Source: an uncultured Bacteroidales bacterium
GTDB lineage: Bacteria > Bacteroidota > Bacteroidia > Bacteroidales > Paludibacteraceae
NCBI GenBank assembly: GCA_937885465.1
Contig: CAKZZM010000154.1
Span: forward strand, 7,760-71,759
Direction of reading: 5' to 3'
Length of the DNA stretch: 64,000 nucleotides
The first letter of the stretch is position 1, and the number at the start of each line of letters is the position of its first letter. Position numbers and translations under genes: made by a program. Below are positions 10,814 to 63,835 of the stretch, piece by piece. The notes under the pieces were generated by a model, which searched no databases, was not told the origin of the DNA, and saw only the letters and a program-made list of their open reading frames with translations.

Positions 10814-10925
10814 AGTTGAAAGTTGAAAGTTGAAAGGTGAAAGTGCGGGCAGAGCCATAAAGTGGAAAGTCCGGCAAGTCCGGAAAGTCCGGAAAGTGCG
10901 GAGAGCCCGGAGAGTCCGGAAAGCC
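10814..10925. repeat. RepG heptamer/nonamer array with an embedded RepC
   Basis: AAGTTGAAAGTTGAAAGTTGAAAGGTGAAAGTGCGGGCAGAGCCATAAAGTGGAAAGTCCGGCAAGTCCGGAAAGTCCGGAAAGTGCGGAGAGCCCGGAGAGTCCGGAAAG. Confidence 0.9.
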
Positions 10926-11094
10926 CCCTTTTTCGCCTTTTCCGCTGAGTTATACGTCACCACTCCCTTTTGACAAATTTATTAAATTACTCGCGCCTTA
11001 AGAATATAATGTATTGTGTTATGAAGCATTATTTGCAATTCCGATTTCCAACGAGATAGTTAATATGCAGATACTCAATAATATATGGTATAAT

Positions 11095-11258: not shown

Positions 11259-11343
11259 CACTGCCCGACAATGTACCATGTACGAAAGTCCGGGCAGAAC
11301 CCTAAAGTTGAAAGCCGAAAGTTATACTACAAAGCAAATAGAT

Positions 11344-13868: not shown

Positions 13869-14020
13869 TCCGGAGGGTCCGGAGATTCCGGAAAGTCCGA
13901 AAAGTCCGGAGATTCCGGAAAGTCCGGAAAGTCCGGAAAGTCCGAAAAGTCCGGAAAGTCCGAAGATTCCGGAAAGTCCGAAGATTCCGGAAAGTCCGAA
14001 CGCTCGGAGGCGTTCTCCAC
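13869..14020. repeat. 15 tandem 9-nt units (TCCGGAAAG and variants, 13869-14003) running into an inverted RepA (13998-14020)
   Basis: Units counted one by one. The array starts at the base after the gatZ-like stop codon and ends 10 nt before the esterase ATG. Confidence 0.95.
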
Positions 14021-19415: not shown

Positions 19416-21131
19416 ATGAAAAGAATCTATTACATTCAATTGATTGGCATGGTTGCCTTGTTTGCAGCATGCAAGCATGACCCTGTTGTTGAGCCGGAAG
19501 AGCCTCAGCAGCAGGACACAACTGAGCAGTATGTGCCGAAGGCGGAATGGGAGTTGGCTGACTCGCTATATACGCCGGCTGACTACACTGTGCCGAGTCA
19601 TACGATGCTCAAGATTGCCATCAGCGCTTGTGCCGACAATCCGAGCGAGGAAAACCTGGCAGTGATGCGCCAAAAGATCGAGGAGTTGGTGCCCAAGACT
19701 GAGCCTTACTGCATGGTTGCTACCATCAACGGCGACCCGAAGAGCAGGATGGGGTTTTGTTGGATGACCAATGACAGTGTTTTCGATGGCGTGGTGCAAC
19801 TTGTTGCCAAAGAGAATGCTACAGAAGCGGACTTTGAGTCAGGCGTGATAGAAATACCTGCTACGACCAAACGAACCAAAGCCATTACCTATGGTGGCAT
19901 TTGCTCCTATATTGTCCGTGCTTCAGGCATTCCGAAAAATGAGAAATATCGTTATATCAGCCACAAGGCAATAGCAGAGAACCTGACTCCCGGTTGTGCT
20001 TATTCGTGGCGAGTAGGCTACGAAGGCCATTGGAGTAAGATAGCCCAATTCCGTACTGAAGATGCAGAGCAAGGTGAATATTCGTTTATCTATATGACTG
20101 ACAGCCATATTATGAATGCAGAATATATCAGTAAGGCACGCCGTTGTGCCCTTGCCGCAGCCAAAACTGTACCTGAAGCACGTTTCTGTGTATTTCCCGG
20201 CGATTTTGTTGAAGATGGTGAACAGGTTAATAGCGAATGGGAGTGGGAGAGATGGTTTGAGGAAGCAATGAAACCTGTTATTATGCAAATGCCTATTGTT
20301 CCTACTGATGGTAACCACGATCCCAGTCCCAATCTTAATTATACGCACCATTTCAATACTGACAATGCTTTTTACAATAGTTGTTTTATCCCGCAGTACG
20401 AAGGTGTCGTTTACGATTTTGTATATGGAGACGCATTGTTTCTTGTCTTTTCCATGCAGGATTATTGGCGTGTCCAATATAGTTATGCTGACCCGCCCTC
20501 ATCAATCTATCTAAATAAGATTAGTGATTGGTTCATCAGTCGTACAACAGCCAATCCTGACACTAAGTACCGTATCTCTTTGGCACATTTCAATCTGTTC
20601 TCAGGGTCAGATCATTCTATAGACAACGATCCTCCGCTCTTCCGTGCATGTATGTTGCCAACGATGAAGCTTTGTGAGGTTGATTTAGCGTTGCAGGGGC
20701 ATGATCACACCTACGAGGTTATTGGTCCGGTTAATCCGGATGATTGTACGCCGATACTGGACGCTATCTCTGACCGTGAGGAAGTGCCTGTTGATAAAAA
20801 TATGAACGCAACGGGTTACAAAGGCGGCACTTTCTGCACCGATGACGGTACGCTCTATTTTATCGGTGCCACTTGCGGGGCAAAAAAATACTATCCTCAC
20901 AGCCGTGAGCGGATGGAGGCTGATTATAATAGCGGCAAGCACAATGTGCCGAACTACTTTGACCTGTTCACGGGTATGTTCGGTCAGCCGGAGAAACCGA
21001 GTTTCACGAAGATCACGGTGAAAGATGATTGCATTGAGTTTAATTCTTATACTGCAGACAACGATGAGGGCAATGTGACGCTGTTCAACACCATGCGCGT
21101 TGTCCGCACTAAACCTCATAGCGTGCCATAA
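19416..21131 (+). CDS. purple-acid-phosphatase-like metallophosphoesterase lipoprotein, paralogue 2 (no beta-helix module)
   Basis: Lipoprotein signal LFAACKHD. Same PAP-N + metallophos architecture and motifs (MTDSH, PGDF, DGNHD, AHFNLF, QGHDH). Contains the NSEWEWERWFEEAMKPV block identical to paralogue 1. Confidence 0.85.
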   Translation: MKRIYYIQLIGMVALFAACKHDPVVEPEEPQQQDTTEQYVPKAEWELADSLYTPADYTVPSHTMLKIAISACADNPSEENLAVMRQKIEELVPKTEPYCMVATINGDPKSRMGFCWMTNDSVFDGVVQLVAKENATEADFESGVIEIPATTKRTKAITYGGICSYIVRASGIPKNEKYRYISHKAIAENLTPGCAYSWRVGYEGHWSKIAQFRTEDAEQGEYSFIYMTDSHIMNAEYISKARRCALAAAKTVPEARFCVFPGDFVEDGEQVNSEWEWERWFEEAMKPVIMQMPIVPTDGNHDPSPNLNYTHHFNTDNAFYNSCFIPQYEGVVYDFVYGDALFLVFSMQDYWRVQYSYADPPSSIYLNKISDWFISRTTANPDTKYRISLAHFNLFSGSDHSIDNDPPLFRACMLPTMKLCEVDLALQGHDHTYEVIGPVNPDDCTPILDAISDREEVPVDKNMNATGYKGGTFCTDDGTLYFIGATCGAKKYYPHSRERMEADYNSGKHNVPNYFDLFTGMFGQPEKPSFTKITVKDDCIEFNSYTADNDEGNVTLFNTMRVVRTKPHSVP

Positions 21132-21186
21132 CAAAGTACCAAGTGACGAAGTACGATGTACGATACCGTTCGGAGACGTTCTCCAC
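21131..21186. repeat. RepE block plus truncated inverted RepA
   Basis: CAAAGTACCAAGTGACGAAGTACGATGTACGATACCGTTCGGAGACGTTCTCCAC. Confidence 0.85.
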
Positions 21187-21213
21187 TATTATAATCCTAA
21201 ATATACATTTATT

Positions 21214-24200
21214 ATGAAAAAACTATTCTTTCTTTTGACGCTGTGCACAGCGGTGCTGTGTGCTTCTGCGAGCAATAAGTATGTGCGCCCCGACGGCGAT
21301 GATTCGCTCGATGGCAAATCATGGGCTAACGCCTTTGCTACTATCCAAACGGCAGTATGGGGCGTACCGGCAGGTGACACCGTTTTTATCGCTGAGGGTA
21401 CTTATAATCAGCGATTTTCCGTCAGTGATGGTCAGACTATCCTCGGTGGCTATAACGCCCAGACGGGGGAGCGCGACATCGAGATGTACGAAACGATAAT
21501 CGATGGTACTGATATAGGTCAGTATCTGATAGTTAAGTATGATGGTCCCCCTACCAATCATATTTTGATAGAGGGTCTTACTCTGCAGAATGCTCAGCAT
21601 GATCAGTGGGGCGGCGGAGCCATCTATCTACGCGATAATATGACGGTTCGTCAGTGCCATATACGCAACTGCCGTGGTGGAACGGCGGGCGCCATCTTCA
21701 TCGACCATAATGATGCCGCGACCGTGCAGGCGGTGGTTAGCGGCTGCATAGTGGAACTATGCTCAGCCAACGGCTGCGCCGCTATCTACAATAACAACGG
21801 CATAGTGGAGAACTGCATAGTACGCGGTTGTAGCGGCAAAGCGGGGGCTATACGCAACGAGACGGCCGCCGGCATAGTACGCAACTGCGTAGTGCATAAC
21901 AACACCCTCACCGGCACTTGGCCTAATAGCGCCATCTATAACAAAGGTTTAGTCTATAATTGCACCGTAGCCAATAACCACGGCGACCAATATGCGGGCA
22001 TTCATTCTGAAGGTATGGTGTATAATTCCGTCTTTTGGGGGAATACAAACCCGACCGATTTCAGCGATCCTGCTAACTATATCAATGGTAGCAACTCCAC
22101 GCACAACGTGGCAGACGAAGGTTTCGGCAAGAGTTCTGCATATCTGAGTCTGACTCTCTCTGCCAATAATACCGATGTGGCGGGTCCTAATTTCCGCAAC
22201 CCGACGAATTTCGCAGGTGTGCCTGCCGATGATGCGCAGATCACCAGTATGCAGAATGCCGATTTCTCGCTCACCGATGCTTCTGTGGCATTGCTTGATA
22301 AGGCTGAGGCGGCATCTGCTACCACCACCGACATCACCGGTGTCGCTCGTCCCAAAGGAACGGGTTACGACATAGGTGCATACGAGTACGATCCCGATGC
22401 CGTTACTGTTGCCGTAACAGGTGTTAGTATTCAGCAAGATACCCTCAGAGTGATTGTCGGTCAGACAGCCACCTTCACCGTTATTATAACACCTGCCGAT
22501 GCTAATAATAAGCGGGTAAGTTGGGAATGTCAGGATGCTACTGTGGCAACAATACAGAATGGCATAGTAACAGGTCTGAGAGAAGATACCACTTTGGTCA
22601 GTGTGACCACGCAGGATGGAGCTTTCACTGCCACAGCAGTGTTAGTAGTTCTGCCCGTTCCGCCCGTTTATTATCCGGTAGAGGTCTTGGCTGCAGATAC
22701 TCTGTATAAGCAGGCTGACTATACAGTGCCGTCTTATATCCCCTTCCTCATCGCTAAGGAAGCCGCAAGGATAGATAGTGCTACTGCTGAGGATGTTACT
22801 GCTATTGCCGATAAGATAGCAGAGATGAATATTGCTATCGGTAATCTTGTGAACAAAGAAGAACCATATAATATGGTTGCCAATATCAACGGTGATCCGT
22901 CAATGCGTATGGCGTTCTGCTGGTTCACTAACGAAGGTATAACGGATGGAGTGGTGCAACTTCTTGCAATGGAAAATGCTACGGCAGACGACTTCGAGAC
23001 GAATAACGGCGTTATAACTATTACCGCAGAGGCGACCACGACTCCTGCGCTCAATTATGCCGTTGCCACTTCGGGTATAGCAAAGGCGGCGGGCATTGCC
23101 GGTAATACCAAATTCCGCTATGTCAGCCACAAAGCACTTGCCGATAATCTGACAGCTGGCACAACCTATTCGTGGCGAGTAGGTTATGAAGGGCATTATT
23201 CCGATATCGCCCGTTTCCGCACAAAAGATGCAGTGCAGGGCGAATATTCTTTCCTCTATATGTCGGATAGTCATATTCAGGATGCAGAGTATGTAAATAA
23301 TGCTAAATGGTGCGCTATGGCAGCAGTGCAGACCGTTCCGGAAGCTCGTTTCTGCCTCTTCCCCGGCGACTTTGTCGAGACAGGCACCAAGTCGAACTCC
23401 GAGTGGGAGTGGGAGAGATGGTTCGAGGAATCGATACGACCGGTGATAATGCAGATGCCTATCGTGCCAACTGATGGTAATCACGATGATAGCGAGAATC
23501 TTAATTACGACTATCACTTCAATACCGACTGGGGATTCTACTCAATGGTGCAGTCGCACAAACCGCAGTTCCACGGCATAACCTATTCGTTTGTCTATGG
23601 AGATGTCCTCTTTCTTGTTTATTCGTTGCAAGATTGGTGGCGAGCAAGCGGCAGTAGTGCCGAAGGCAGGTTGTCATCGTATCTCTCAAATGATGTGAAA
23701 AACTGGTTTAATGAGCAGATTGCGGCGCATCCGAACACCAAATATCGCGTGACACTTGCTCATAAAAATATCTTCTCCGGTTCAGGACATTCAACCGATG
23801 ATGAGATACCGATGTTCCGTGATATTATGTTGCCTATTTTGAAAGATTGTCAGATCGACCTTGCTATTCAGGGGCATGACCACTGCTATGAGGTTATAGG
23901 TCCGGTTAATCCTGATACCCGCACATTAGTGGAAGGGGCTGTGGAAGATGTAGAGACGGTTGCCGTCAATACCAATACGAATATGACCGGCAAGCAAGGC
24001 GGCACTTTCACCACCGATGACGGTACGCTGTATTTCATTGGAGCAACTTGCGGGCGTAAGCGTTACTACCCGTATAGCCGTGCTAAGATGGAGGAGAAAT
24101 ATACTACCGACCCGTCTGTTCTTTATGATGATAACCACCACGATGTAGAGAATTATTTTGACCTCTTCACAGGCATGTTTGGTCAACCGGGTGCTCCTTC

Positions 24201-24450
24201 ATTCACTAAGTTTACTGTTAAGAGCGACTGCCTTGAGGTTAATTCCTATACAGCCGACTCGAACGGCAATGCTACTCTTATCAATACAATGCGAGTGAAG
24301 CGTAACACTGCCCACACCGTTCCCTCTGGCTACGAAGACGTGCAGCAGCAGCGCACCATCCGCGACGGCGAGAAGTTCATCCGCGGTGGTCAAATGCTGA
24401 TTCGCAAGGATGGCAAGACCTACAATGTGCTGGGTGAGGTGGTAGAGTAA
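21214..24450 (+). CDS. secreted beta-helix + Big_2 + purple-acid-phosphatase-like metallophosphoesterase with T9SS-like tail, paralogue 3
   Basis: I prefer the ATG at 21214 (MKKLFFLLTLCTAVLCASA signal peptide) over the ORF-track start 21100, which reads through repeat sequence. Ig-like Big_2 segment VTGVSIQQDTLRVIVGQTATFTV...VSWECQD. Motifs MSDSH, PGDF, DGNHD, AHKNIF, QGHDH. Tail FIRGGQMLIRKDGKTYNVLGEVVE. Confidence 0.85.
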   Translation: MKKLFFLLTLCTAVLCASASNKYVRPDGDDSLDGKSWANAFATIQTAVWGVPAGDTVFIAEGTYNQRFSVSDGQTILGGYNAQTGERDIEMYETIIDGTDIGQYLIVKYDGPPTNHILIEGLTLQNAQHDQWGGGAIYLRDNMTVRQCHIRNCRGGTAGAIFIDHNDAATVQAVVSGCIVELCSANGCAAIYNNNGIVENCIVRGCSGKAGAIRNETAAGIVRNCVVHNNTLTGTWPNSAIYNKGLVYNCTVANNHGDQYAGIHSEGMVYNSVFWGNTNPTDFSDPANYINGSNSTHNVADEGFGKSSAYLSLTLSANNTDVAGPNFRNPTNFAGVPADDAQITSMQNADFSLTDASVALLDKAEAASATTTDITGVARPKGTGYDIGAYEYDPDAVTVAVTGVSIQQDTLRVIVGQTATFTVIITPADANNKRVSWECQDATVATIQNGIVTGLREDTTLVSVTTQDGAFTATAVLVVLPVPPVYYPVEVLAADTLYKQADYTVPSYIPFLIAKEAARIDSATAEDVTAIADKIAEMNIAIGNLVNKEEPYNMVANINGDPSMRMAFCWFTNEGITDGVVQLLAMENATADDFETNNGVITITAEATTTPALNYAVATSGIAKAAGIAGNTKFRYVSHKALADNLTAGTTYSWRVGYEGHYSDIARFRTKDAVQGEYSFLYMSDSHIQDAEYVNNAKWCAMAAVQTVPEARFCLFPGDFVETGTKSNSEWEWERWFEESIRPVIMQMPIVPTDGNHDDSENLNYDYHFNTDWGFYSMVQSHKPQFHGITYSFVYGDVLFLVYSLQDWWRASGSSAEGRLSSYLSNDVKNWFNEQIAAHPNTKYRVTLAHKNIFSGSGHSTDDEIPMFRDIMLPILKDCQIDLAIQGHDHCYEVIGPVNPDTRTLVEGAVEDVETVAVNTNTNMTGKQGGTFTTDDGTLYFIGATCGRKRYYPYSRAKMEEKYTTDPSVLYDDNHHDVENYFDLFTGMFGQPGAPSFTKFTVKSDCLEVNSYTADSNGNATLINTMRVKRNTAHTVPSGYEDVQQQRTIRDGEKFIRGGQMLIRKDGKTYNVLGEVVE

Positions 24451-30543: not shown

Positions 30544-32496
30544 ATGAAAAAAGTCTTTTATCTATTATCTTTAACTGTTGCGGTCTTAAGTCTGACTGCG
30601 TGTCAGCCGAAGGCGGATAGTGGTGAACGCCTCCGAGCGTTCGACACCGAACGGCTGATCTGCGCGGAAGCGGATATGCAGGCGTTCCCGTATCAGCAGA
30701 AGGGCTTGCATGTGGTAAAGCAGCAGACGGTACGGAATGTTGACGGCGTGCCGGGATTGCAGGTGATCCAGACGCAGTTCATCAATATAGGCAAGCCTGT
30801 GATGGTCAGAGCCTACGAGCTATGCCGCACAGAAATTGAGCCGAAAGATACAGTTGTATGGTCGCTACAGCCGAGCAGCACGGCGGCACGTATGGACTGG
30901 GTGCTGCCCGTTACGCAGGGATTCAGCAAGCAGAACTACCTTGGCATGAACAACTCCGACTACGGTGGTGGCATACCTGTGGTTGACCTGTGGCAGCGTG
31001 ACGGCGGTGAGGCTATCGGGTTGTTTGAGCCGGTGCTGCGGATGATTTCAATGCCCGTGGAGTGGAAGCGCTATGATAACAAAGTGACGATGGCACTCCG
31101 TTATGATCTGCCGGAATCGGTAGAACTGGCAACTGGTGACACGTTGCGTTGCTATAAGGCGTTCCGCTACAAGCATACGGGTGATTACTTTACCGCCCTG
31201 CGTACGTTCTCGGAGTATATGCAGGCGAACGAAGGGGTGGTGATGAGGCCATCTGAGCCGGAAGCGTTTGAACCCGTTTGGTGTGCGTGGGGATATGGGC
31301 GTCCGTTCAAAATGGATATGGTATTGGGTACGTTGGACAAGGTTGCCGAATTAGGTTTCACTTGGGTGGATATAGACGATGGCTACCAGATTGCGGAGGG
31401 CGACTGGAATACGAACGAGTATTTCCCTGGCGGTGACAAAGATATGCGTCATATAACGGACGAGGTTCACAGGCGCGGTATGAAAGCCAAACTATGGTGG
31501 GCACCATTGGCGGCTGACCCGGATACGAAGTTGGTGAAAGAGCATCCCGAATATCTGCTCAAGACCGAGGAATGGGCACACGAGTATATCACGTGGTGGG
31601 ACAGCTGGTATCTGTCGCCTGTTAATCCGGGTGTAGATGCCTATACGACTGACCTGCTGAAGATGTTTATCGACCGTTGGGGATTCGATGGCTTGAAGAT
31701 TGATGGTCAGCATCTGAACTGCTGTCTGCCCGACTATAACGAGACGTCAGGGCTGAATGACCCTTGGGAGGCGCCCGAGCAGATGCCGACATACTTTGGT
31801 AAGATATACGAGCAGACTCGTGCCATGAAGCCAGATGCTGTTATTCAGGTTTGTCCCTGCGGCTGCGCAGTGAACTATTGGCTGCTGCCGCAGATCAACC
31901 AAGCCGTGGCATCCGACCCGATGAGTTCGCGTCAGGTGCGAATGAAACGCAAGGCTTACGCAGCTATGGCACCGGATCTGGCATACTACGGCGACCATGT
32001 GGAACTGACGGATGGCGGCAATGATTTTGCTTCGCAGATAGGTACGGGTTCGGTTATCGGAACGAAGTTCACGTGGCCGAAGGACAACCCCGACTGGAAC
32101 GAAGGTCCGTTCCTGCTCACGCCGGAGAAAGAACAACTGCTCCGCAAGTGGATGAAGATTTACAAGGAAAATAACCTTGCCCGAGGCGAATACATGAACC
32201 TCTATACGTGGGGTTTCGACTATCCTGAGGCGCATGTGATAAGAGTTGAAAGTCCGGGCAGAGCCCTAAAGTCGAAAGTCGAAAGCGCAGGGGAGGCGAT
32301 GTACTATGCGTTCTATACCGATGATCAACCCTTCAGCGGTATAATAGAGTTACGCGGAATAGAGGCAGGCAAGACTTATACTGCCACAGAGTATGCAGCC
32401 GATGAACCGCGTGAGTTCGAGGTGGACGGCAGCAATCCGAAGATAGAGGTGAACTTCGAGCGGAGTTATCTGCTGAAAGTAGTAGAAAAGTGGTGA
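30544..32496 (+). CDS. alpha-galactosidase-like glycoside hydrolase lipoprotein (clan GH-D, GH36/GH27-like) with two in-frame repeat insertions
   Basis: Lipobox LSLTAC. Catalytic-domain blocks WCAWGYG, FTWVDIDDGYQ, KAKLWWAPL, FDGLKIDGQH. Repeat-encoded SGERLRAF lies just after the lipobox, and VESPGRALKSKVES lies near the C-terminus. Confidence 0.78.
   Translation: MKKVFYLLSLTVAVLSLTACQPKADSGERLRAFDTERLICAEADMQAFPYQQKGLHVVKQQTVRNVDGVPGLQVIQTQFINIGKPVMVRAYELCRTEIEPKDTVVWSLQPSSTAARMDWVLPVTQGFSKQNYLGMNNSDYGGGIPVVDLWQRDGGEAIGLFEPVLRMISMPVEWKRYDNKVTMALRYDLPESVELATGDTLRCYKAFRYKHTGDYFTALRTFSEYMQANEGVVMRPSEPEAFEPVWCAWGYGRPFKMDMVLGTLDKVAELGFTWVDIDDGYQIAEGDWNTNEYFPGGDKDMRHITDEVHRRGMKAKLWWAPLAADPDTKLVKEHPEYLLKTEEWAHEYITWWDSWYLSPVNPGVDAYTTDLLKMFIDRWGFDGLKIDGQHLNCCLPDYNETSGLNDPWEAPEQMPTYFGKIYEQTRAMKPDAVIQVCPCGCAVNYWLLPQINQAVASDPMSSRQVRMKRKAYAAMAPDLAYYGDHVELTDGGNDFASQIGTGSVIGTKFTWPKDNPDWNEGPFLLTPEKEQLLRKWMKIYKENNLARGEYMNLYTWGFDYPEAHVIRVESPGRALKSKVESAGEAMYYAFYTDDQPFSGIIELRGIEAGKTYTATEYAADEPREFEVDGSNPKIEVNFERSYLLKVVEKW
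30620..30642 (+). repeat. RepA (GTGGTGAACGCCTCCGAGCGTTC) in frame, 5 codons after the lipoprotein Cys
   Basis: Translated as SGERLRAF. Confidence 0.9.
32245..32285 (+). repeat. RepG-RepC-RepG unit in frame in the alpha-galactosidase
   Basis: GTTGAAAGTCCGGGCAGAGCCCTAAAGTCGAAAGTCGAAAG is translated as VESPGRALKSKVES. Confidence 0.85.
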
Positions 32497-32573
32497 ACGT
32501 CTCCGAACGTTGCACCTTCGTACATCGTACATTGTCACTTTGTACATTGTACATTGTCACTTTGTACATTGTA
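32490..32573. repeat. RepA variant containing the alpha-galactosidase stop codon, then a TGTACAT heptamer array
   Basis: GTGG-TGA-ACGTCTCCGAACGTT (TGA at 32494-32496), then ...TACATTGTCACTTTGTACATTGTACATTGTCACTTTGTACATTG. Confidence 0.9.
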
Positions 32574-32599
32574 AATAGTTTAACCAAATATTTAATCAC

Positions 32600-40939: not shown

Positions 40940-40955
40940 GTAATTATACAAAATA

Positions 40956-41770: not shown

Positions 41771-42895
41771 ATGTATCGAGTAAAAATATTACTTTTAGTG
41801 CTTTGTTCAGTGGTGCTTAGCACTATATCTGCTTTAGAACGTTCGGAGACGTTCTCCACTATATCTGCTGCTCCACCGCTTATCTTTAATGGTGATACGC
41901 TGCCGAAGAACACGGATTTTAAGAAGAGTCAGTGCGGCACGTTGAAAACATCTGCCACGATAAGCGAGGTGTCAGGTATTGCATGCTCTCGCCTGACGCC
42001 CGGGTATATATGGATGGAGAGCGATGACTATCGTAATGTCATAGCAACAGACGAAAAAGGGAAGACGCGCTATATGAAACTGCTGTTTCGCGGTCTGCCT
42101 GACAGGTGGGATTGGGAAGATATGTGCGGAGGCGTATATGAGGGAGTAAACTATCTCTTTGTGGGTGCCTTTGGCGATAATAATGAGACAACCGGAAATT
42201 ACTATATTATCTATTTCGAAGAACCGGAGGTGACTTCTTCACAGACGTATATAGTGGATGCCTCGTATATTCATTTTGCCTATCCCGATGGCAAGAAGCA
42301 TAATGCGGAAGCTTTGATGTATGATAATCGTGAGCAAATGCTTTATGTCATAACAAAGGTATATTACGATGTGTGTCAGGTGTTTAGTCTGCCGATGAGT
42401 CATGATTACGGTGAAGAGGAACAGACATTGACATATATTTGTGATTTAGGGTTAAAGTCCGATCTCGGGAGTGACGGGATGCATGGTTTCCATTTAGTGA
42501 CGGCTGCGGATATCTCACCTGATGGCAGGTATATCCTTATCAAGAATCATAATAATAATATTGCCAGTTACTCGTATGTGTTATTGTGGCAAAGGGAAGC
42601 AGATGAGAGCGTGAGCGATGCATTGATGCGCCAGCCTGAGCAGATAGGTTGCTACTCCTACGAGTGGCAGGGTGAGGCGATGTGTTGGCTCGATTCCACC
42701 ACTTTCTATACTACCTCTGACGAAGATTCGGGTGACCCGCCTATCTTTAAGTATGTCAAGACACCGCCGTCGGCGGTTGAAGAAGTGGAGGCATTAGAAG
42801 ATGATAATGCTCGGATAAAGTTGTTGTTTAATAAAGGAAACCTCTATATTCGCAAGAACAACCGACTCTACAGCTTAGATGGTAGAGAGGTTTAA
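41771..42895 (+). CDS. secreted hypothetical protein with T9SS-like tail; RepA inserted in the signal peptide region
   Basis: 374 aa. [36 protein letters not shown]... Tail LLFNKGNLYIRKNNRLYSLDGREV. No confident family. Confidence 0.6.
   Translation: MYRVKILLLVLCSVVLSTISALERSETFSTISAAPPLIFNGDTLPKNTDFKKSQCGTLKTSATISEVSGIACSRLTPGYIWMESDDYRNVIATDEKGKTRYMKLLFRGLPDRWDWEDMCGGVYEGVNYLFVGAFGDNNETTGNYYIIYFEEPEVTSSQTYIVDASYIHFAYPDGKKHNAEALMYDNREQMLYVITKVYYDVCQVFSLPMSHDYGEEEQTLTYICDLGLKSDLGSDGMHGFHLVTAADISPDGRYILIKNHNNNIASYSYVLLWQREADESVSDALMRQPEQIGCYSYEWQGEAMCWLDSTTFYTTSDEDSGDPPIFKYVKTPPSAVEEVEALEDDNARIKLLFNKGNLYIRKNNRLYSLDGREV
41821..41869. repeat. inverted RepA flanked by a 13-bp direct duplication
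   Basis: CACTATATCTGCT (41821-41833) + TTAGAACGTTCGGAGACGTTCTC (41834-41856) + CACTATATCTGCT (41857-41869). Period 36 nt = 12 codons. Confidence 0.9.
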
Positions 42896-43093: not shown

Positions 43094-45073
43094 TCAGACG
43101 TTCTCCACTAATGTCATCTCGCAGCGTTGGCAGTCTGTTTCAATGCGGAGGAGAGTATCGGCATGCCGTATATAAGCGGGTGTTTTTTGTTTGCTTGTGG
43201 TCTTCTTTTTTTTGCAGCAGTTCATCTCGTAGAGAATGCAATATTTGCAGGTCATCAATGGCGAGGGGTGAGAGTGGAGAGTGGAGAACGTCTGAGAACG
43301 TTCAATAGTGGAGAACGTCTCTGAACGTTCGGAGACGTTCTCCACTGTTGAGAGACGGTGAAAAACACCGTCTCTACCACGTTCGGAAGTGCTCTCTACA
43401 GAAGACGATGTTTGCTGTGCCTCAGAGCGGCTTTGCGGATGGCATTTCGACACTTGGTACTCAGTGATGAATTTTTCGACTGCTTTCCGGCGCCAATCGT
43501 TAAGTACGGAGGTACGAAGGAAATAGGGCGTTTGCCATTGAATGATGATTTCATCAGCAATAAGCGGTGTCCCGCCGAGTTTGGCTAACTGCTGTCTGAC
43601 TATGGTCTCTGCCCGTTCTGCATTTTCCGCCGCTTCGTGCGATGATTCAAAGTGAGAAGTCGCGGACGAGCCGTCCACGCCCCATTTCGCGGACGAGCCG
43701 TCCACGCCCCAGACGTTCACCACGCGGGAGTGTGCCGTTCTGATAGTTATGTCGAAACCTGCGTTTGTAGCACTGAAAATGATGCTGACGGGCAGGAGTC
43801 GCACAGCAGCATTATTCTGCATCAGAGTGCGGTTGAATTCTGCATCGAAGTTTCGGTAAACAGGTGTTCCCTCTTTTATCTTACCCATACCGTTGCTTGT
43901 GGAGAACGTCTGAGAACGTTCGGAGACGTTCTCCACTAATAAGTCTGAACGTTCAGAGACGTTCGCTACTGCACTCGAACGTTTAGAGACGTTCGCCACT
44001 GCGCTCGAACGTTCAGAGACGTTCGCCACTGCTGACCAGTAGCAGCCTTGTCCGTTGAAGGTCAGGCCATCGCCGTTGTGCATTGTTTTGCCGCGCAGCA
44101 AGCCTTGTGGTAGTGGGGCATAGCCTATTAGTTCGCCGGTGGATTTGGGCGTTTGTCGATTGACGAGGTTGTGGGGGCGTTCAAGCGAGAAGTATTCGGT
44201 GGAGCCGCGGTGGAAGGTCTTGACGGGGTCGGGCGTGAAGTTGAGTATTACTCGTCCGCGTGAGGTGCGGCTGACCCCGATGTCGTTGAGCAGTAAGTTG
44301 TAGTAGGCGGTGATATTTTTCACATAATCGATATCTTTCAAACGCCCCTCTATCTTAAGTGTTGTAACGCCTGTATCAAGCAGTTCTCTAAGATGGGCGG
44401 AGCGGTCGAGGTCGTAGAGCGAGAGTATATGTTGCTCTTTGGCAATCACTTTTTTGTCTTTGTCAAGTATGTCGTATGGCAGTCGGCACATCTGTGCACA
44501 TTCGCCTCTATTGGCTGACCTGCCGCATACTGCTTCGCTGAGGTAGCATATGCCCGAATAGCAGACGCATAAGGCACCATGTACAAACGCCTCTAATTCG
44601 CAGGTGGTGACGGCGCGTATCTCTGCCATCTGTTGGTACGATAGTTCTCGTGCAAGTACCACTCTGCTGAAGCCGAGTTGCTCAAGTGCCTGCACCTTCT
44701 CTGCCGTGCGGTTGTCGCATTGGGTGGAAGCATGAAGGCGAAAACCGGCTTGCAATAGTGTTTGAGCAAGGCGCATATCTTGAACAATAAGGGCATATAC
44801 TCCCGCTTCTCTGCATTGATACGCTATGCTCACTGCCTCGCCATACTCGTCTTCGCGCAGTAAAGTGTTGAGAGTAACTAATACTCTTGCATCCCAAAAA
44901 GAGGCATAGCGGACTAACTCCGCTATGTCCTCTATGCTGTTCCCCGCTGCTTTTCTTGCGCCGAAGGCGGGGCCACCTATATAAACGGCATCTGCACCGG
45001 CATCAATAGCAGCCTTGCCGACGGTTACATTCTTAGCCGGTGCGAGCAGTTCGATTTGTTTATCTCCTATCAC
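43094..45073 (-). CDS. peptidase U32 family protein carrying several in-frame repeat insertions
   Basis: GTG start at 45073 overlapping the flotillin stop. The N-terminal 330 aa are clearly U32 (IELLAPAKN...AGADAVYIGGPAFGARK...VHGALCVCYSGICYLS...CAQMCRLPY). Repeat-encoded stretches are listed below. The stop codon lies inside a RepA variant. Confidence 0.8.
   Translation of the reverse strand: MIGDKQIELLAPAKNVTVGKAAIDAGADAVYIGGPAFGARKAAGNSIEDIAELVRYASFWDARVLVTLNTLLREDEYGEAVSIAYQCREAGVYALIVQDMRLAQTLLQAGFRLHASTQCDNRTAEKVQALEQLGFSRVVLARELSYQQMAEIRAVTTCELEAFVHGALCVCYSGICYLSEAVCGRSANRGECAQMCRLPYDILDKDKKVIAKEQHILSLYDLDRSAHLRELLDTGVTTLKIEGRLKDIDYVKNITAYYNLLLNDIGVSRTSRGRVILNFTPDPVKTFHRGSTEYFSLERPHNLVNRQTPKSTGELIGYAPLPQGLLRGKTMHNGDGLTFNGQGCYWSAVANVSERSSAVANVSKRSSAVANVSERSDLLVENVSERSQTFSTSNGMGKIKEGTPVYRNFDAEFNRTLMQNNAAVRLLPVSIIFSATNAGFDITIRTAHSRVVNVWGVDGSSAKWGVDGSSATSHFESSHEAAENAERAETIVRQQLAKLGGTPLIADEIIIQWQTPYFLRTSVLNDWRRKAVEKFITEYQVSKCHPQSRSEAQQTSSSVESTSERGRDGVFHRLSTVENVSERSETFSTIERSQTFSTLHSHPSPLMTCKYCILYEMNCCKKKKTTSKQKTPAYIRHADTLLRIETDCQRCEMTLVENV
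43273..43380. repeat. RepA x3 + RepB inside the 3-prime part of the U32 gene
   Basis: RepA at 43281 and 43308, inverted tail to 43345, RepB 43346-43380. Encodes (minus strand) [33 protein letters not shown]. Confidence 0.9.
43659..43723. repeat. RepF x2 in tandem inside the U32 gene
   Basis: CGCGGACGAGCCGTCCACGCCCCA twice. Encodes WGVDGSSAKWGVDGSSA on the minus strand. Confidence 0.85.
43899..44030. repeat. five RepA-derived units inside the U32 gene, three of them as a 30-nt tandem array
   Basis: Encodes [47 protein letters not shown] on the minus strand. Confidence 0.9.
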
Positions 45074-46690: not shown

Positions 46691-46815
46691 GTGAAGCTCT
46701 CCTATGCTTCATGCGAGGCATGGGAGTGCCTCGCTACTACAACTACCGGAACGTTCGGAGACGTTCTCCACTATTTTATCGCGGACGAGCCGTCCGCGTC
46801 CCAGACGTTCTCCAC
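46691..46815. repeat. inverted RepH (46691-46737) - inverted RepA (46749-46771) - RepF (to 46815)
   Basis: Read directly upstream of smpB. This sequence explains the spurious 5-prime extension of the ORF-track entry 46704..47309. Confidence 0.9.
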
Positions 46816-46856
46816 GAAAACAGAAAATAACAGTTGCCCCTTCGGTTGTAAGCACT

Positions 46857-47371: not shown

Positions 47372-48898
47372 ATGAGTAAAGCATTATTAATGATTCTCGA
47401 CGGCTGGGGAATCGGACACAAAGACAAAGCCGATGCGATAAGTCAGACCTCTACCCCTCACTGGGATAAGTTACTTGCAGATTATCCTAATTCTCAACTT
47501 CAGGCGAGTGGCGAGAATGTAGGTCTGCCTGATGGTCAGATGGGTAATTCTGAGGTCGGGCACCTCAATATAGGTGCGGGGCGCGTTGTTTATCAAGACC
47601 TCGTTAAGATTAATCGTGCCTGCAAAGATGGCAGTATAATGCAGAACCCTGAGATACAGGCTGCATATTCGTATGCTAAAGAGAGCGGCAAGCAACTGCA
47701 TATCATGGGTCTGACATCTGATGGCGGTGTGCACTCTTCTTTGGAGCACCTCTTTTTTCTTTGCGACATCGCCAAGGAATATGGTCTGCAAGGTAAGACT
47801 TTTATCCACTGTTTCATGGATGGCAGGGATACCGATCCCCGTTCGGGCATAGGTTTCATTGACCAACTTGAGGCTCATTGCGCTCGGTCGGCAGGTGAGA
47901 TAGCTTCTATCTGCGGTCGTTTTTATGCTATGGACCGCGATAAGCGTTGGGAGCGAATCAAAGAAGGATATGATTTGCTTGTGAGCGGCAAAGGTGCTGA
48001 GTTCGAGAATATGCATGAGGCCATGCAGGCAAGTTACGACAGCGGAGTGACGGATGAGTTTATTAAACCGATAGTACGTATGCGTGGTGGTAAACCGCTT
48101 GCAACGATAGAGGAGGGGGATGTGGTAATCTTCTTTAACTATCGCAACGACCGCGCCAAAGAGATAACGATAGCCCTCACGCAGCAGGAAATGCCGGAGC
48201 ATGGAATGCATACCATTAAGAATCTGCACTATTGTTGCATGACGCCTTACGACTCTTCGTTCACGGGACTGCATATCCTCTTCCCGAAAGAGAATGTGAA
48301 CAATACCTTAGGTGAGATAGTCTCAAAGGCGGGCATGAAACAGTTGCGCATTGCCGAAACGGAGAAGTTTGCACATGTTACCTTCTTCTTCTCAGGAGGG
48401 CGTGAAGCGGAATTCGAAGGTGAGGACCGTATTCTTATACCTTCACCTAAGGTACCTACATACGACCTGCAGCCGATGATGTCTGCACCTGAAGTAACGA
48501 TAGCCTTGCGCGACGCATTGAACTCGCAGAAATATGACTGCATCATTCTCAATTATGCCAATGGCGATATGGTCGGACATACGGGCGTGTATAATTCCAT
48601 TCAGCAGGCAATAACGGCGATAGATATATGCGTAAATGAGACGGTTGAGGCAGCGCGCCGTAACGGCTATGAGGTGATTATCATTGCTGACCATGGTAAC
48701 TGCGATCATGCAATCAACGATGACGGTACGCCTAATACTGCTCACTCACTCAACCCTGTGCCGTTCGTGTATATAAGCGATAATAAGGACGCAAAGGTTG
48801 AGAACGGTATCCTTGCCGATGTGGCACCGTCGCTCTGCCATATTCTTGGTATTGAGCAGCCACAGGAGATGACGGGCCATTGCCTGATTAGAAAGTAA
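47372..48898 (+). CDS. gpmI: 2,3-bisphosphoglycerate-independent phosphoglycerate mutase
   Basis: 508 aa. [36 protein letters not shown] blocks. Confidence 0.95.
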
Positions 48899-48914
48899 CA
48901 GGTCTAATTTGTCC

Positions 48915-48968
48915 TTTGTACATTGTACATTGTCCATTTGTACATTGTACATTGTCCCTTTGTACATA
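48915..48968. repeat. TGTACAT-based tandem repeat (22-nt unit TTTGTACATTGTACATTGTCCN, about 2.4 copies)
   Basis: Read directly after the gpmI stop. Confidence 0.85.
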
Positions 48969-48973
48969 ATTTG

Positions 48974-49252
48974 ATGCGTCGATTAGATAAATACTCAGTA
49001 GGAATAGTGCTTGGCTTGCTATTGCCGGCACTGTTCTGCTATGTATATATATCGAGGTTTAATCTGTGGGGTGTATTGAAAGCATTTGACTTCTCCGCCA
49101 ACAGTGTGCTGAGCAAAATGATGATGCTATCGGTGTTTCCTAATATGGCGCTGCTCTTTCTCTTTTATGAGATGGACCTATGGCGTTTGGCGAAGGGAGT
49201 GTTGATAGGTGCCTTCCCGTATATTATTGCTGCTATTTGGTTTACTATATGA
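48974..49252 (+). CDS. small membrane protein (92 aa, about 3 TM), translationally coupled to lpxB
   Basis: MRRLDKYSVGIVLGLLLPALFCYVYI... Its stop overlaps the lpxB ATG (ATGA at 49249-49252). The ORF-track start 48923 lies in the tandem repeat. Confidence 0.5.
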   Translation: MRRLDKYSVGIVLGLLLPALFCYVYISRFNLWGVLKAFDFSANSVLSKMMMLSVFPNMALLFLFYEMDLWRLAKGVLIGAFPYIIAAIWFTI

Positions 49253-50673
49253 CGGTATTCCTTATAGCAGGTGAGGCATCGGGCGACACGCATGCTGCCC
49301 GACTGATGCAGGCAATGAAAGTATTGCAAAGCGATATCCGCTTTGTCGGATTAGGCGGTGATGCGATGAGACGCGAGGGAGCGGTGCTCTATCAAGACTA
49401 CCGTGAGATGGCTTTTATGGGGATATTTGCCGTGCTGAGCAATTTGAGTAAGGTGAGGCGTAATTTCAAGATTGCCCGCGAAGCACTGCTGAAAGAGAAG
49501 CCGGATGTGCTGATATTGATTGATTATCCCTCGTTTAACCTGCGGATGGCGCAGTTCTGCCGTGAGCATCTGCCTGCTACTCGTATCGTCTATTATATCC
49601 CGCCCAAAGTATGGGCATGGAAGCGCTGGAGAGTACATAAGATTGCTCGTCTGTGTGACGAGGTGTTAGGTATATTCCCTTTCGAACCGGATTTTTACTC
49701 GCGATATGGTTACAAATGTACTTATATAGGCAATCCTACAGTGGAGGAGGTAACGAGTACAGAGTGGAGAACGTCTGAGAACGTTCAAAAAAAGGCGGAG
49801 AGGGCAGGGGAAGAAAGCGATTTAGCGAACGGCAATTCGAGAATTATCGCTGTTCTGCCGGGCTCTCGGCGAAGTGAGATAGAACATTGTCTGCGAAAAA
49901 TGGTTGAAGCCGCACAATTGGCAGCACCCGGTTATGATATTGTTGTGGCAGGTGCTGAGGGGCAAAGCAGAGAATTATATGAGCAACAACTAAAAATATC
50001 CGGGGGGTTGGACCCCTCCGCTCCGTCAAGAGACAGTGGAGAACGTCTGAGAACGTCTGGCGGTAGATACGGTGGAAAACACCATCTCTCAAATAGTGGA
50101 GAACGTCTGAGAACGTCTGGCGACTCTGCACCAAAGGTGAGGGTGGTGTTTGGCAGTACTCATGATATATTAAGGCAGGCGGACGCTGCTATTATCAATT
50201 CGGGAACGGCAACGCTTGAGGGTGCATTGCTAAGGTGTCCGCAGGTGGCTGTATATCATATCGCTGTGCCTCACGCTATATTATTTAGCAGGTTGTTGTT
50301 CAGCAGTCCGTATTTTACTCTGCCTAATATCCTGCTTCAGAGAGAGGTAATCTCGGAACTGATAGGTTACCGATTTACGGTTCAGCGAACGGCAGATGAA
50401 CTGAGGAAACTATTGCAAACTGATGAAAGACAGTGGCGAATGTCAGAGAACGTTCATAACTCTCGTCTTTATAATGTCGGCATTAAATGCCGACGTTTGG
50501 AGCGGAGCTCGTCTGAGAACGTTCAAAAAGAGTCCTCCGCTCCTTTCGGGACCGGCGAGACCGAGAGCGCGAGACAAAGGCAATTGCAAGGCTATGAAGA
50601 GATAGCAAATATGCTTGGAAAGCAAAACGCCGCGGAGACTGCTGCAAAAATTATACTGAAACATCGAGAGTGA
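49249..50673 (+). CDS. lpxB: lipid-A-disaccharide synthase LpxB with three in-frame repeat insertions
   Basis: Collinear with E. coli LpxB as I recall it: IAGEASGD, DYPSFNLR, IPPKVWAWKRWR, LPGSRRSEI, SGTATLE, LPNILL. It is 474 aa versus about 380 for typical LpxB. The excess maps to RepA/RepB/RepD sequence. Confidence 0.85.
   Translation: MTVFLIAGEASGDTHAARLMQAMKVLQSDIRFVGLGGDAMRREGAVLYQDYREMAFMGIFAVLSNLSKVRRNFKIAREALLKEKPDVLILIDYPSFNLRMAQFCREHLPATRIVYYIPPKVWAWKRWRVHKIARLCDEVLGIFPFEPDFYSRYGYKCTYIGNPTVEEVTSTEWRTSENVQKKAERAGEESDLANGNSRIIAVLPGSRRSEIEHCLRKMVEAAQLAAPGYDIVVAGAEGQSRELYEQQLKISGGLDPSAPSRDSGERLRTSGGRYGGKHHLSNSGERLRTSGDSAPKVRVVFGSTHDILRQADAAIINSGTATLEGALLRCPQVAVYHIAVPHAILFSRLLFSSPYFTLPNILLQREVISELIGYRFTVQRTADELRKLLQTDERQWRMSENVHNSRLYNVGIKCRRLERSSSENVQKESSAPFGTGETESARQRQLQGYEEIANMLGKQNAAETAAKIILKHRE
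49764..49786 (+). repeat. RepA (loop variant CTGAGA; 5-prime TAG changed to GAG) in frame in lpxB
   Basis: GAG TGG AGA ACG TCT GAG AAC GTT CAA = EWRTSENVQ. Confidence 0.92.
50036..50117 (+). repeat. RepA-RepB-RepA composite module in frame in lpxB
   Basis: Translated as [29 protein letters not shown]. It is near-collinear with the module at 17827-17909, including the junction GAACGTCTGGCGGTAGA. Confidence 0.92.
50431..50527 (+). repeat. degenerate RepA - RepD - degenerate RepA in frame in lpxB
   Basis: CAGTGGCGAATGTCAGAGAACGTTC + TCTCGTCTTTATAATGTCGGCATTAAATGCCGAC + ...GTCTGAGAACGTTC. Translated as QWRMSENVHNSRLYNVGIKCRRLERSSSENVQ. Confidence 0.88.
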
Positions 50674-50736: not shown

Positions 50737-51822
50737 ATGTTACTACTTTTTATATTTTTAATTTCAGCATTAGTTATTTCTTTTCTATGCTCTATCTTAG
50801 AGTCTTCGCTTCTCTCGACCACTTTTTCGTATTTGCAGATGAAGGAGGATGAGGGCGATAAGGCTGCTGTGCGATTGAAGCAGTACAAGCAGGAGAGTGA
50901 GCGTCCGCTCGCTGCTATCCTGTCGCTGAATACGATAGCAAACACTATAGGTGCTGCCGGCATAGGACAACAGGCAACATTAATCTTCGGCAGTAAGTGG
51001 TTTGGCTTGGTATCGGCAATAACAACTATTCTTATTCTTGTTTTTTCAGAGATTATCCCAAAGACCATCGGTTCTACTTATTGGCGATCGCTCACCGCTT
51101 TTACTGCTAATACTCTTAGGGTGCTGATTTTTATTATGTTCCCTGTTGTGTGGTGTGTGGAAAAGATAACTCAGATGATAACGCCGAAAGATGCCGAGGA
51201 GGCGTCCGTATCAAGAGAAGAAGTGAGCGCAATGGCGAATGTGGGAGAAGAAGAGGGAGTGTTTGATGAGGATGAGAATAAGATTATTCAGAATATCATT
51301 AAGTTGGACGATGTTAAGGCTTACGATATTATGACACCTCGCGTCGTTTGTGCTACGGCACCGGAAACGATGACTCTGCAAGATTTTTATAAAGAAGACC
51401 GCTATGATCACTTCTCTCGTATCCCCGTATATGCTGACTCTCCTGAGTTTATCACGGGTTATGTACTTCGTTCTGATGCGCTTGAGATGCTGGCAGAGGA
51501 TAAGTTCCATATTCGTCTTGGTGATATTAAGCGTCCTCTGCCTTACTTCAATGAGGAGACCGCTATACCCGATATATGGGACGCGCTGATAGAGCATAAG
51601 GAGCAGATTTCCATCGTTATTGATGAATATGGTGCGATGCAGGGAATATTAACGCTTGAAGATGTAATCGAAACGGTCTTCGGACTGGAGATTACCGACG
51701 AGAACGATCAGTTCACTGATATGCAGCAGTATGCCCGTGAGCGTTGGCAGCAGAGGCAAAAACGCTTCCAGACGGTCAGCATTCCGAAAGTAGAAAGTGA
51801 AAAGTTGAAAGTTGAAAGTTGA
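50737..51822 (+). CDS. CNNM/DUF21 transmembrane + CBS-pair domain protein (HlyC/CorC-type transporter family)
   Basis: The N-terminal 4-TM DUF21-like region ends in SEIIPKTIG, followed by two CBS motifs. The last about 11 codons (KVESEKLKVES) and the stop lie in a RepG heptamer array. Confidence 0.85.
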   Translation: MLLLFIFLISALVISFLCSILESSLLSTTFSYLQMKEDEGDKAAVRLKQYKQESERPLAAILSLNTIANTIGAAGIGQQATLIFGSKWFGLVSAITTILILVFSEIIPKTIGSTYWRSLTAFTANTLRVLIFIMFPVVWCVEKITQMITPKDAEEASVSREEVSAMANVGEEEGVFDEDENKIIQNIIKLDDVKAYDIMTPRVVCATAPETMTLQDFYKEDRYDHFSRIPVYADSPEFITGYVLRSDALEMLAEDKFHIRLGDIKRPLPYFNEETAIPDIWDALIEHKEQISIVIDEYGAMQGILTLEDVIETVFGLEITDENDQFTDMQQYARERWQQRQKRFQTVSIPKVESEKLKVES

Positions 51823-63496: not shown

Positions 63497-63568
63497 CAAA
63501 GTGGCATTATTGAAAATCAGTTTGTTGCAAAGAAAGTTCATTTTTTTTCAAAAAAAATCGGGTAAAAA

Positions 63569-63600
63569 TTTGGTGGGTTTGAAAAAAAGTAGTAATTTTG
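63569..63600 (+). promoter_or_regulatory. promoter candidate TTTG-N20-TAatTTTG with no ORF downstream
   Basis: TTTG at 63569-63572 and TAATTTTG at 63593-63600. Confidence 0.5.
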
Positions 63601-63606
63601 CACTCG

Positions 63607-63835
63607 CTTTTGAAAAGAGAGGCACTCGAATGTCAGTGTGACGATAGCAGTCAGTGAGATGACGAAATAGTAGAGAACATCTCCGAACGTTCAACAACAG
63701 GAGTGTTTTCGGAGTAAAAAGCGAGCCACAGTGGTGGCACCCGTACTGAAGCGCTGGAAACCGCACGATATATGCTGAGGTGTACATCGGGAAAACAGCA
63801 GGCCGACGAACTACTCAACTACGGTAGTTTTTTTT
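63607..63835 (+). ncRNA. candidate about 230-nt noncoding transcript or riboswitch-like leader (unidentified class)
   Basis: Lies between the promoter candidate and a hairpin AACTAC...GTAGTT + T8 (63810-63835). No plus-strand ORF over 25 codons. Long-range pairing CTCGCTTTT (63603-63611) / AAAAGCGAG (63716-63724), and hairpin GCCACagtgGTGGC. Contains a degenerate RepA (63670-63692). Confidence 0.3.

Follow-up and report, generated by a model that had tools for sequence, protein, structure and literature searches.

The lpxB locus

We analyze a 64,000-nt stretch of DNA ("the window") from an uncultured Bacteroidales bacterium of the Paludibacteraceae (contig CAKZZM010000154.1 of assembly GCA_937885465.1), in which the gene lpxB carries three blocks of short dispersed repeats (inserts 1 to 3) within an open reading frame. 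lpxB is a lipid A pathway gene and is normally essential. The repeats are assembled from units that we call RepA, RepB and RepD; they are read in frame at three sites of a conserved lpxB, and the frame is kept across strains despite gain and loss of modules. We consider it likely that these are in-frame repeat blocks in a working LpxB, tolerated by the enzyme and remodelled from strain to strain. Positions refer to the window, and the features are collected in Table 1.

On the forward strand, the lpxB open reading frame (ORF) ends at 50673 and has possible starts at 49180 and 49249; translation from the methionine at 49249 gives a protein of 474 aa, and the ATG of this start shares bases with the stop codon of a 92-aa gene upstream (ATGA). 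This protein matches the Pfam family PF02684 (LpxB) with E = 4.9e-79 and 266 bits (cut-off 22.6) and the TIGR00215 equivalog model with 234.6 bits (cut-off 190.25), and no other Pfam domain, inteins included, was found in it. E. coli LpxB (5W8S) aligns with it at E = 1e-43 in two collinear blocks that are broken at the insert sites. An alignment of 75 sequences, the window protein among them, has 76 fully invariant columns, including GEASGD, D92, PGSR (R207) and NSGTATLE, and the window LpxB shares the residue at each. Judged by these comparisons, 49249-50673 is confirmed as encoding a bona fide, intact LpxB (lipid-A-disaccharide synthase, GT19). The original prediction for this locus, made from the letters and translations of the DNA, had recognized an LpxB homologue by its motifs; all of these are present, and the Pfam, TIGR00215 and 5W8S matches agree with it. 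An exact-product look-up returned no record for either the 474-aa LpxB or the 92-aa upstream protein.

Table 1. Positions of lpxB, its inserts and linkers, neighbouring genes and other repeat-bearing genes in the window
Feature	Position	Strand	Remarks
lpxB coding sequence	49249..50673	+	474 aa plus stop, intact
Insert 1: single RepA (AGTGGAGAACGTCTGAGAACGTTCA)	49763..49787	+	Codons 49762-49788 encode EWRTSENVQ
Insert 2: RepA 50035-50062, RepB 50062-50092, RepA 50095-50122	50035..50122	+	Peptide of 29 aa, encoded by 50035-50121
Insert 3: RepA 50431-50456, RepD hairpin 50476-50494, RepA 50501-50525	50431..50525	+	From repeat alignment
Extra linker KISGGLDPSAPSR	49996..50034	+	Before insert 2; not in orthologues, no other copy in the window or related contigs searched
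Extra linker KESSAPFGTGETESA	50528..50572	+	After insert 3; not detectably repeat-derived
92-aa membrane-protein gene	48974..49252	+	Upstream of lpxB, translationally coupled
CNNM/CBS gene	50737..51822	+	Conserved right-hand neighbour of lpxB
Purple-acid-phosphatase/metallophosphoesterase-like gene	16510-19218	+	902 aa; repeats at 16793-16836 and 17785-17920
U32 peptidase	43094-45073	-	Repeat blocks at ~43266-43378 and 43899-44033
SIS-domain protein	11278-12555	+	In-frame RepA dimer at 11782-11843
Secreted protein	41771-42895	+	RepA at 41831-41862, just past the signal peptide

Three repeat blocks read in frame

The three inserts differ in composition and in how far they have diverged from the repeat consensus. 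Insert 1 has GAG at 49762-49764 in place of the consensus TAG. The RepB of insert 2 is a degenerate GTAG-tagged hairpin, 77% identical to its family reference, and the insert as a whole aligns base for base with a RepA-RepB-RepA module at 17826. Insert 3, of which 50431-50526 encode the peptide QWRMSENVHNSRLYNVGIKCRRLERSSSENVQ, consists of a diverged first RepA, the RepD hairpin GTCGGCATTAAATGCCGAC and a second RepA; it is 76-84% identical to the references of the repeat-finder families D7 and D9 and aligns base for base with composites at 8354, 40952 and 6048. The coordinates and peptides first given for the three inserts were correct on re-reading of the sequence.

We searched masked lpxB against the rest of the window and about 730 kb of related contigs, and the only stretches of the gene with copies elsewhere were 49761-49792, 50033-50122 and 50448-50527. 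With the diverged RepA of insert 3 (50431-50456) added, the repeat-derived total comes to ~219 nt; this equals ~73 codons and accounts for that many of the ~100 extra residues. The original prediction had held that the excess length of the protein is repeat DNA, which stands for ~73 of the ~100 residues; the remainder consists of the linkers KISGGLDPSAPSR and KESSAPFGTGETESA.

The units themselves are well defined. RepA is ~25 nt long, has the core GGAGAACGTCT[CC/GA]GAACGT and holds both a 5-bp hairpin (GGAGA-ACG-TCTCC) and the palindrome GAACGTTC. Its core occurs 49 times in the 64-kb window at ≤3 mismatches, compared with 0.02 expected from shuffled sequence, so that the copies in lpxB are not a product of chance. 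A repeat finder grouped the lpxB copies with many other window copies, mostly extragenic, in families D1 (RepA), D19 (RepB), and D7 and D9 (RepD and a 103-nt RepA-RepD-RepA composite). RepB, with the hairpin form GGTAGAGACGGTG...CACCGTCTCTCAA, is palindromic; its stem measures 8 bp and its loop 5 nt (GGTAG-AGACGGTS-loop(5)-SACCGTCT-CTCAA), and 53 of its 55 copies have GTAG at one end. RepD is likewise palindromic, its stem being 8-9 bp long. The units occur as singletons, as dimers (head-to-head RepA dimers exist) and as RepA-RepB-RepA and RepA-RepD-RepA composites, in which the RepA units are in direct orientation. TAG precedes the RepA core in 68% of extragenic copies, and no GTAG requirement was seen for RepA. 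Five of the six RepA reading frames are open, and those commonly used yield hydrophilic peptides such as ERSETFSTI.

lpxB is one of many genes that read these repeats. Across the window and related loci (793 kb), 102-103 of 492 RepA cores (~21%) lie inside ORFs of at least 200 aa, 46 ORFs in all, and RepA density outside ORF interiors is ~8.6 times that inside. For host ORFs sampled in the related contigs, Pfam supports nine out of ten, namely TamB, ComEC, a TonB-dependent receptor, PolA (DNA polymerase I), an RlmI-like methyltransferase, SbcC, POR (2-oxoacid:ferredoxin oxidoreductase), Dxs and a DUF349 protein.

Stop codons provide a further view of how the copies in lpxB are read. In the frames used by inserts 1 and 3, the repeat consensus contains four stops (two TAGs that precede RepA, a TAA within the RepD loop and a TAG ahead of the second RepA), at which the lpxB copies have GAG in insert 1 and CAG, AAA and TTG in insert 3. 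The change from TAG to GAG that had been singled out in insert 1 is therefore real, and insert 3 is without three further consensus stops. These stop-free changes are common to other strains. Some extragenic composites, such as that at 40952, are already without both internal stops, so stop-free variants may have inserted as such rather than having been repaired later. Among the intragenic RepA cores of the 793 kb, only 4 of 102 are read in the frame in which TAG would be a codon; TAG is absent from all four, two of which are in lpxB. Cores read in the two remaining sense frames keep TAG in 71-85% of cases, versus the 68% of extragenic copies.

Orthologues without the inserts

In a database of 5.8 billion proteins, the 120 best homologues of the window LpxB measure 361-411 aa, versus 474 aa for the window protein. 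Those with a named source are Paludibacteraceae metagenome-assembled genomes (MAGs), the GTDB loci are Paludibacteraceae or Bacteroidales, and, the window's own protein aside, none of the best 120 exceeds 53% identity over the BLAST alignment; over aligned columns, the maximum among the 74 homologues of the 75-sequence alignment is 64%. With 13 homologues aligned, insert 2 (~43-45 aa) is found only in the window protein, insert 3 (~47 aa) is missing from 11 of the 13, and the site of insert 1 is a linker of variable length. Two homologues from other lineages, P0009 and P0016, have unrelated insertions at the insert 3 site, so this site is generally permissive.

The closest homologue, P0002, has 368 aa and lies in the same local order of 92-aa gene, lpxB and CNNM gene; the coupling of the 92-aa gene to lpxB is also present at this repeat-free orthologous locus, and no RepA was found in its 13 kb. 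Pairwise alignment of the two proteins, of the kind that the original prediction had proposed for setting the insertion boundaries, leaves three clean gaps of 16, 43 and 47 residues in P0002. The earlier placement of the inserts in alignment gaps or variable linkers is thus borne out against E. coli LpxB, the homologues and P0002 alike. P0002 was also considered as a second lpxB of the same genome and rejected, being a repeat-free syntenic locus of a different organism.

Strain differences in independent assemblies

Exact-product look-ups of the neighbours CNNM and GpmI led to four contigs of the same species, at 98-99% nucleotide identity to the window. L166 (ERR1278104, PRJEB12797 "bioreactor metagenome"; MEGAHIT, contig prefix k127; 37 kb) has an open 477-aa LpxB, and L167 (SPAdes, 17 kb) is identical to it across lpxB. 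L165, from the Logan assembly of ERR1278074, has a short form of insert 2. In L164 (ENA ERZ842383, NODE_19299; SPAdes, 4.4 kb, 4x coverage), insert 1 is joined to insert 3.

In L166 and L167, insert 1 is a full RepA-RepD-RepA composite (+69 nt relative to the window), insert 2 is a single RepA (-60 nt) and insert 3 is the same; direct RepA repeats of 28 nt flank the 60-nt indel of insert 2. The length is divisible by three for each of the three inserts and for both strain-specific indels. The window and L166 have 13.5 kb in common, in which the length differences located lie at repeat loci and the compared genes outside them have no indel columns. The insert 1 composite of L166 carries the same derived substitutions as insert 3, and the two lpxB composites of this sister strain, 678 nt apart, are identical at 96 of 115 positions with an exact run of 35 nt. 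The substitutions clustered in the opening RepA of insert 3 were considered as evidence of gene conversion, a reading toned down because L166 shares the GGCGAAC variant.

L164 has lost 669 nt in frame, from the RepA of insert 1 to insert 3, which leaves a 251-aa 'LpxB', and at its left end an MlaE/ABC-transporter neighbourhood is attached at an upstream 22-nt tandem repeat. Given near-identical composites 678 nt apart that share an exact run, we read L164 as probably an assembly collapse across repeats. Tandem repeats of this 22-nt kind (TTTGTACATTGTACATTGTCMC) are found in the window at 48891-48989 and 32493-32591, just upstream of the operon of the 92-aa gene (p92) and lpxB and of a SusC-like gene, respectively; their copy number varies between strains, with many more units in L164, and they are possibly promoter-proximal elements.

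Of the differences that separate L166 from the window, 5 in the LpxB core are synonymous and 2 are non-synonymous; the corresponding counts for insert 3 are 1 and 4, and strain differences in the genes neighbouring lpxB are mostly synonymous. At the level of sequence, the direction of these substitutions would fit a constrained enzyme with relaxed inserts. At lpxB codon 123 (49615-49617), the near-invariant Ala of KVWAWK is Val in L164, L166 and L167.

Predicted structure and RNA hairpins

An AlphaFold2 model of the window LpxB, built with the 75-sequence alignment, has a mean predicted local distance difference test score (pLDDT) of 82.8, a predicted template modelling score (pTM) of 0.81 and a two-domain core with pLDDT above 90. 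The only residues below 50 are 261-290, which are insert 2, between helix 241-249 and strand 297-301, and 403-435, which are insert 3, between helix 393-406 and helix 441-456; both inserts are modelled as disordered loops. The region of insert 1 (residues ~171-200, pLDDT 64-78) takes in the end of helix 163-185 and the loop before strand 199-203; the insert occupies a variable linker before the first strand of the C-terminal domain. Foldseek's top matches to the model are the E. coli LpxB structures 5W8N, 5W8X and 5W8S (E ~1e-17). The model has the two-domain (GT-B) fold of the solved E. coli LpxB; the root-mean-square deviation of the matches is high, as expected from the C-terminally swapped dimer of the E. 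coli crystal form.

In Rossmann-type domains, substrates bind at the C-terminal ends of the strands, and helix-to-strand connections are on the opposite edge. From this general topology, inserts 1 and 2, which are in helix-to-strand connections, would be expected to lie remote from the catalytic cleft.

At the RNA level, the hairpin of insert 3 is retained, with z = -3.8, equal to that of an extragenic copy, and the RepB hairpin of insert 2 is decayed (z = -0.8). Predictions of internal terminators and promoters in lpxB gave none beyond chance, and no terminator-like site on the sense strand.

Origin of the inserts and alternative explanations

We propose that lineage-specific mosaic palindromic repeats have spread through this Bacteroidales genome and that copies landed at three places in lpxB. 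Such copies would persist where their length is a multiple of three, where the frame used contains no stop, and where the site is a helix-to-strand or helix-to-helix connection at a distance from the catalytic cleft of the GT-B fold. They would then be translated as hydrophilic, likely disordered loops of an otherwise normal, functional LpxB. Modules may subsequently change through recombination, slippage or gene conversion between RepA units, and recombination of this kind would leave close strains differing in modules, always in frame. The inserts themselves would be neutral passengers. The original insertion may have occurred by hairpin transposition of the type associated with repetitive extragenic palindromes (REPs), a step in which our confidence is low because no enzyme has been identified for it. 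We regard it as likely that LpxB works as an enzyme and tolerates the inserts as surface loops, as in the model of the Rickettsia palindromic elements (RPEs) discussed below.

Several points weigh against this explanation. Some 27 extra residues have no recognizable repeat origin, and we infer rather than observe both the translation of the inserts and the activity of the enzyme. The genome is only partly seen and may hold a second lpxB copy. The contrast in substitutions between core and insert (5:2 versus 1:4) is small and not statistically significant. The 669-nt loss in L164 could be a real deletion or rearrangement allele. The modules particular to the window (the single RepA of insert 1 and the RepA-RepB-RepA of insert 2) are found in the window assembly alone. 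Finally, no REP-associated tyrosine transposase (RAYT) or IS200-like transposase was found in ~0.85 Mb, a minor part of the genome, using a regular expression for HUH and Y motifs and a small IS200/IS605 hidden Markov model built from IS608, two Sulfolobus proteins and ISDra2, a profile from which RAYTs are distant.

If this lpxB were a decaying pseudogene, a copy made dispensable (for instance by a second one) and littered with repeats, its open frame would be a coincidence. Three foreign blocks in a partly seen genome invite that suspicion, as do the Val in place of the near-invariant A123 of KVWAWK in the sister strain and the L164 allele or artefact, in which the whole core of the C-terminal domain is missing. 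However, all five lengths are multiples of three, for which the chance is ~(1/3)^5, four consensus stops are absent, and the protein shares the residue at every invariant column of the 75-sequence alignment. Core changes between strains are mostly synonymous, like those of the neighbours; the gene is in its ancestral syntenic position, coupled to the same upstream gene as the repeat-free orthologue; and the same repeats are in frame in PolA, Dxs and other genes. A pseudogene is thus very unlikely, and it is the comparison of strains, not the sequence alone, that makes it so. An assembly artefact, in which short-read assemblers spliced dispersed repeats into lpxB, is still less credible. The source is a repeat-rich metagenome-assembled contig, module numbers differ between assemblies, and L164 is clearly a chimera or a collapse at repeats on both of its sides. 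The inserts nevertheless recur in four other assemblies, which stem from different samples and were produced with at least three assembly methods; between L166 and L167 there is no base difference across lpxB; the intragenic copies are diverged variants, each unique, so they are not copies of another locus; and the frame is kept in every version.

The repeat loops, or the DNA or RNA hairpins, might instead have gained a role, possibly in membrane association, in regulating lpxB translation or mRNA stability, or in recombination switching of lipopolysaccharide synthesis. We consider such exaptation improbable. Its support consists of the fully retained RepD hairpin of insert 3 (z = -3.8), the insertions that other lineages bear at the insert 3 site and the composites of the sister strain, which at 678 nt apart could mediate an in-frame deletion, as in L164. 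Strains of 98-99% identity, on the other hand, differ in module content, non-synonymous changes accumulate in insert 3, the RepB hairpin is decayed, the same peptides are found in dozens of unrelated proteins, and the inserts are modelled as disordered, all of which fits neutral passengers. Removal of the inserts before the mature protein is formed, in the manner of an intron, an intein or translational bypass, has in its favour the hairpin potential of insert 3 only. No Rfam family was found in the region and no intein or other Pfam domain in the protein, the units are only 25-97 nt long, and selection against in-frame stops would be needless if the segments were removed before translation; we regard this as the most improbable of the explanations considered.

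A bolder version of the explanation that we prefer, which we put forward as a speculation that is more doubtful than probable, is that an active mosaic repeat system, so far without a recognizable RAYT/IS200 partner, is routinely writing into genes of essential enzymes (LpxB, PolA, Dxs) and is reshuffled by recombination so fast that protein lengths become polymorphic among strains of 98-99% identity. If true, it would amount to a natural engine of loop-insertion mutagenesis, and the direct repeats in lpxB could drive in-frame deletion alleles like that of L164.

Relationship to known intragenic repeats

RPEs, which were reportedly the subject of work by Ogata et al. in 2000, are the closest known parallel in their way of working. 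They are summarized as in-frame intragenic palindromic repeats of Rickettsia in PMC10969869 and PMC3733652. As with RPEs, the repeats described here are dispersed and palindromic, lie both between and inside many unrelated, apparently functional genes, insert in frame, several per gene in some cases, and add peptide at structurally tolerant positions. The differences are that the host is a bioreactor Bacteroidales rather than an obligate intracellular alphaproteobacterium, that the units are mosaic modules of 25-35 nt rather than about 100-150 bp, and that module gain and loss inside a gene is seen here at the level of strains. The analogy with RPEs drawn in the original prediction holds functionally, with repeats in frame in many unrelated genes of the lineage. 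The likeness is one of working, and we do not file the family as RPE; given the Bacteroidales host, common descent with the RPE families is implausible.

The second comparison is with REPs, mosaics of which make up the bacterial interspersed mosaic elements (BIMEs) of E. coli. GTAG- and CGTC-tagged REPs, intragenic ones included, were described by Di Nocera et al. 2013 (PMC3733652), who list the GTAG class for Proteobacteria, Cyanobacteria, Chloroflexi and the PVC group; for Bacteroidetes they list the CGTC class alone. Intragenic GTAG/CGTC REPs, some of them in replication and repair genes, are known from Opitutus terrae, Thauera and other bacteria (PMC3733652, PMC10969869). Our repeats resemble REPs in being short stem-loops with a terminal tetranucleotide tag, the GTAG of RepB being the hallmark of the GTAG class (PMC3733652), and in being present in many copies, for the most part extragenic, as single units, dimers and clusters. 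A minority is likewise in ORFs, adding 20-80 residues and including replication and repair genes, here PolA and SbcC. Unlike REPs, the dominant unit, RepA, is not a palindrome of the classical REP type, the 0.85 Mb examined yielded no RAYT, and the intragenic fraction (~21% of RepA cores) is high.

Intragenic in-frame copies are also documented for pneumococcal BOX, ERIC and MITE (miniature inverted-repeat transposable element) sequences (PMC10969869, PMC2229807). BOX elements share the modular plan (boxA-boxB-boxC versus RepA-RepB/RepD-RepA) and the occasional in-frame intragenic copy. The composites differ from MITEs in that their RepA units are in direct orientation and they thus have no terminal inverted repeats.

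The lpxB case therefore works in the same way as known intragenic repeats and is not categorically new. It extends the RPE-type phenomenon, in which selfish repeats come to be translated within working proteins, to a free-living member of the Bacteroidales and to a lipid A pathway gene; what is new is the host lineage and the gene, tolerance outside intracellular parasites being already known (Opitutus terrae, Thauera; PMC3733652). It also adds a new modular repeat family, with three insertions in one lipid A gene and in-frame remodelling seen between strains, and the module differences in multiples of three offer an uncommon view of the process under way. The three insertion sites point to LpxB loops that are permissive and could serve for tagging or engineering. 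For annotation, the case is a warning that repeat-rich MAGs can give collapsed or chimeric gene models, such as that of L164, and that over-long orthologues are not always errors.

Distribution of the repeats and other observations in the window

The exact RepA 25-mer was found in at least 83 stretches of a metagenome collection; among the matches listed, 82 belong to FLNU01, as one block of consecutively numbered records, and 1 to FLNX01. Since the matches listed are almost all from FLNU01, the repeat family looks lineage-specific. The FLNU01 pieces compared contained no genes orthologous to those of the window. One 221-bp non-coding segment with degenerate RepA (63502-63722) is 99% identical to the end of FLNU01002364.1 (L100), with unmatched flanks; it is possibly a multi-copy leader or promoter region, and the match suggests that FLNU01 comes from the same species or from one very close to it. 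Searching the literature for the repeat as a text string returned only unrelated primer matches, and an Rfam scan of the window found only a tRNA and no family for the repeat. A 50-aa repeat-encoded peptide from the U32 peptidase gene, searched against the 5.8-billion-protein database, had one word-sharing candidate and nothing that scored, a result that is uninformative about distribution.

Four window genes other than lpxB read repeats in frame, and for three of them (purple acid phosphatase, peptidase U32 and SIS-domain protein) Pfam supports the gene. The 902-aa phosphatase gene contains RepA dimers and a RepA-RepA-RepB-RepA block, all in frame. In the U32 peptidase, whose sister-strain counterpart has the same length (659 aa), the repeat peptides include VANVSERSS three times; the gene also holds a duplicated VWGVDGSSA peptide of other origin. 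At 46704-46856, the long ORF of SmpB starts inside repeat DNA (RepA and others, 46743-46818). Because the Pfam match covers this ORF only from residue 60 on and the gene called in the sister strain has 150 aa, the true start probably lies near 46857, with the repeats upstream and not coding.

Another class of repeat in this genome is a 9-nt tandem repeat (GGAAAGTCC and variants), whose arrays are intergenic at 10846-10944 and 13845-14015 and reach up to ~19 units. Three segments at 18040-18438, 19926-20324 and 23092-23490 are 60-73% identical over ~290-400 nt and lie in the consecutive large ORFs 16510-19218, 19416-21131 and 21100-24450, which indicates a tandem paralogous gene family.

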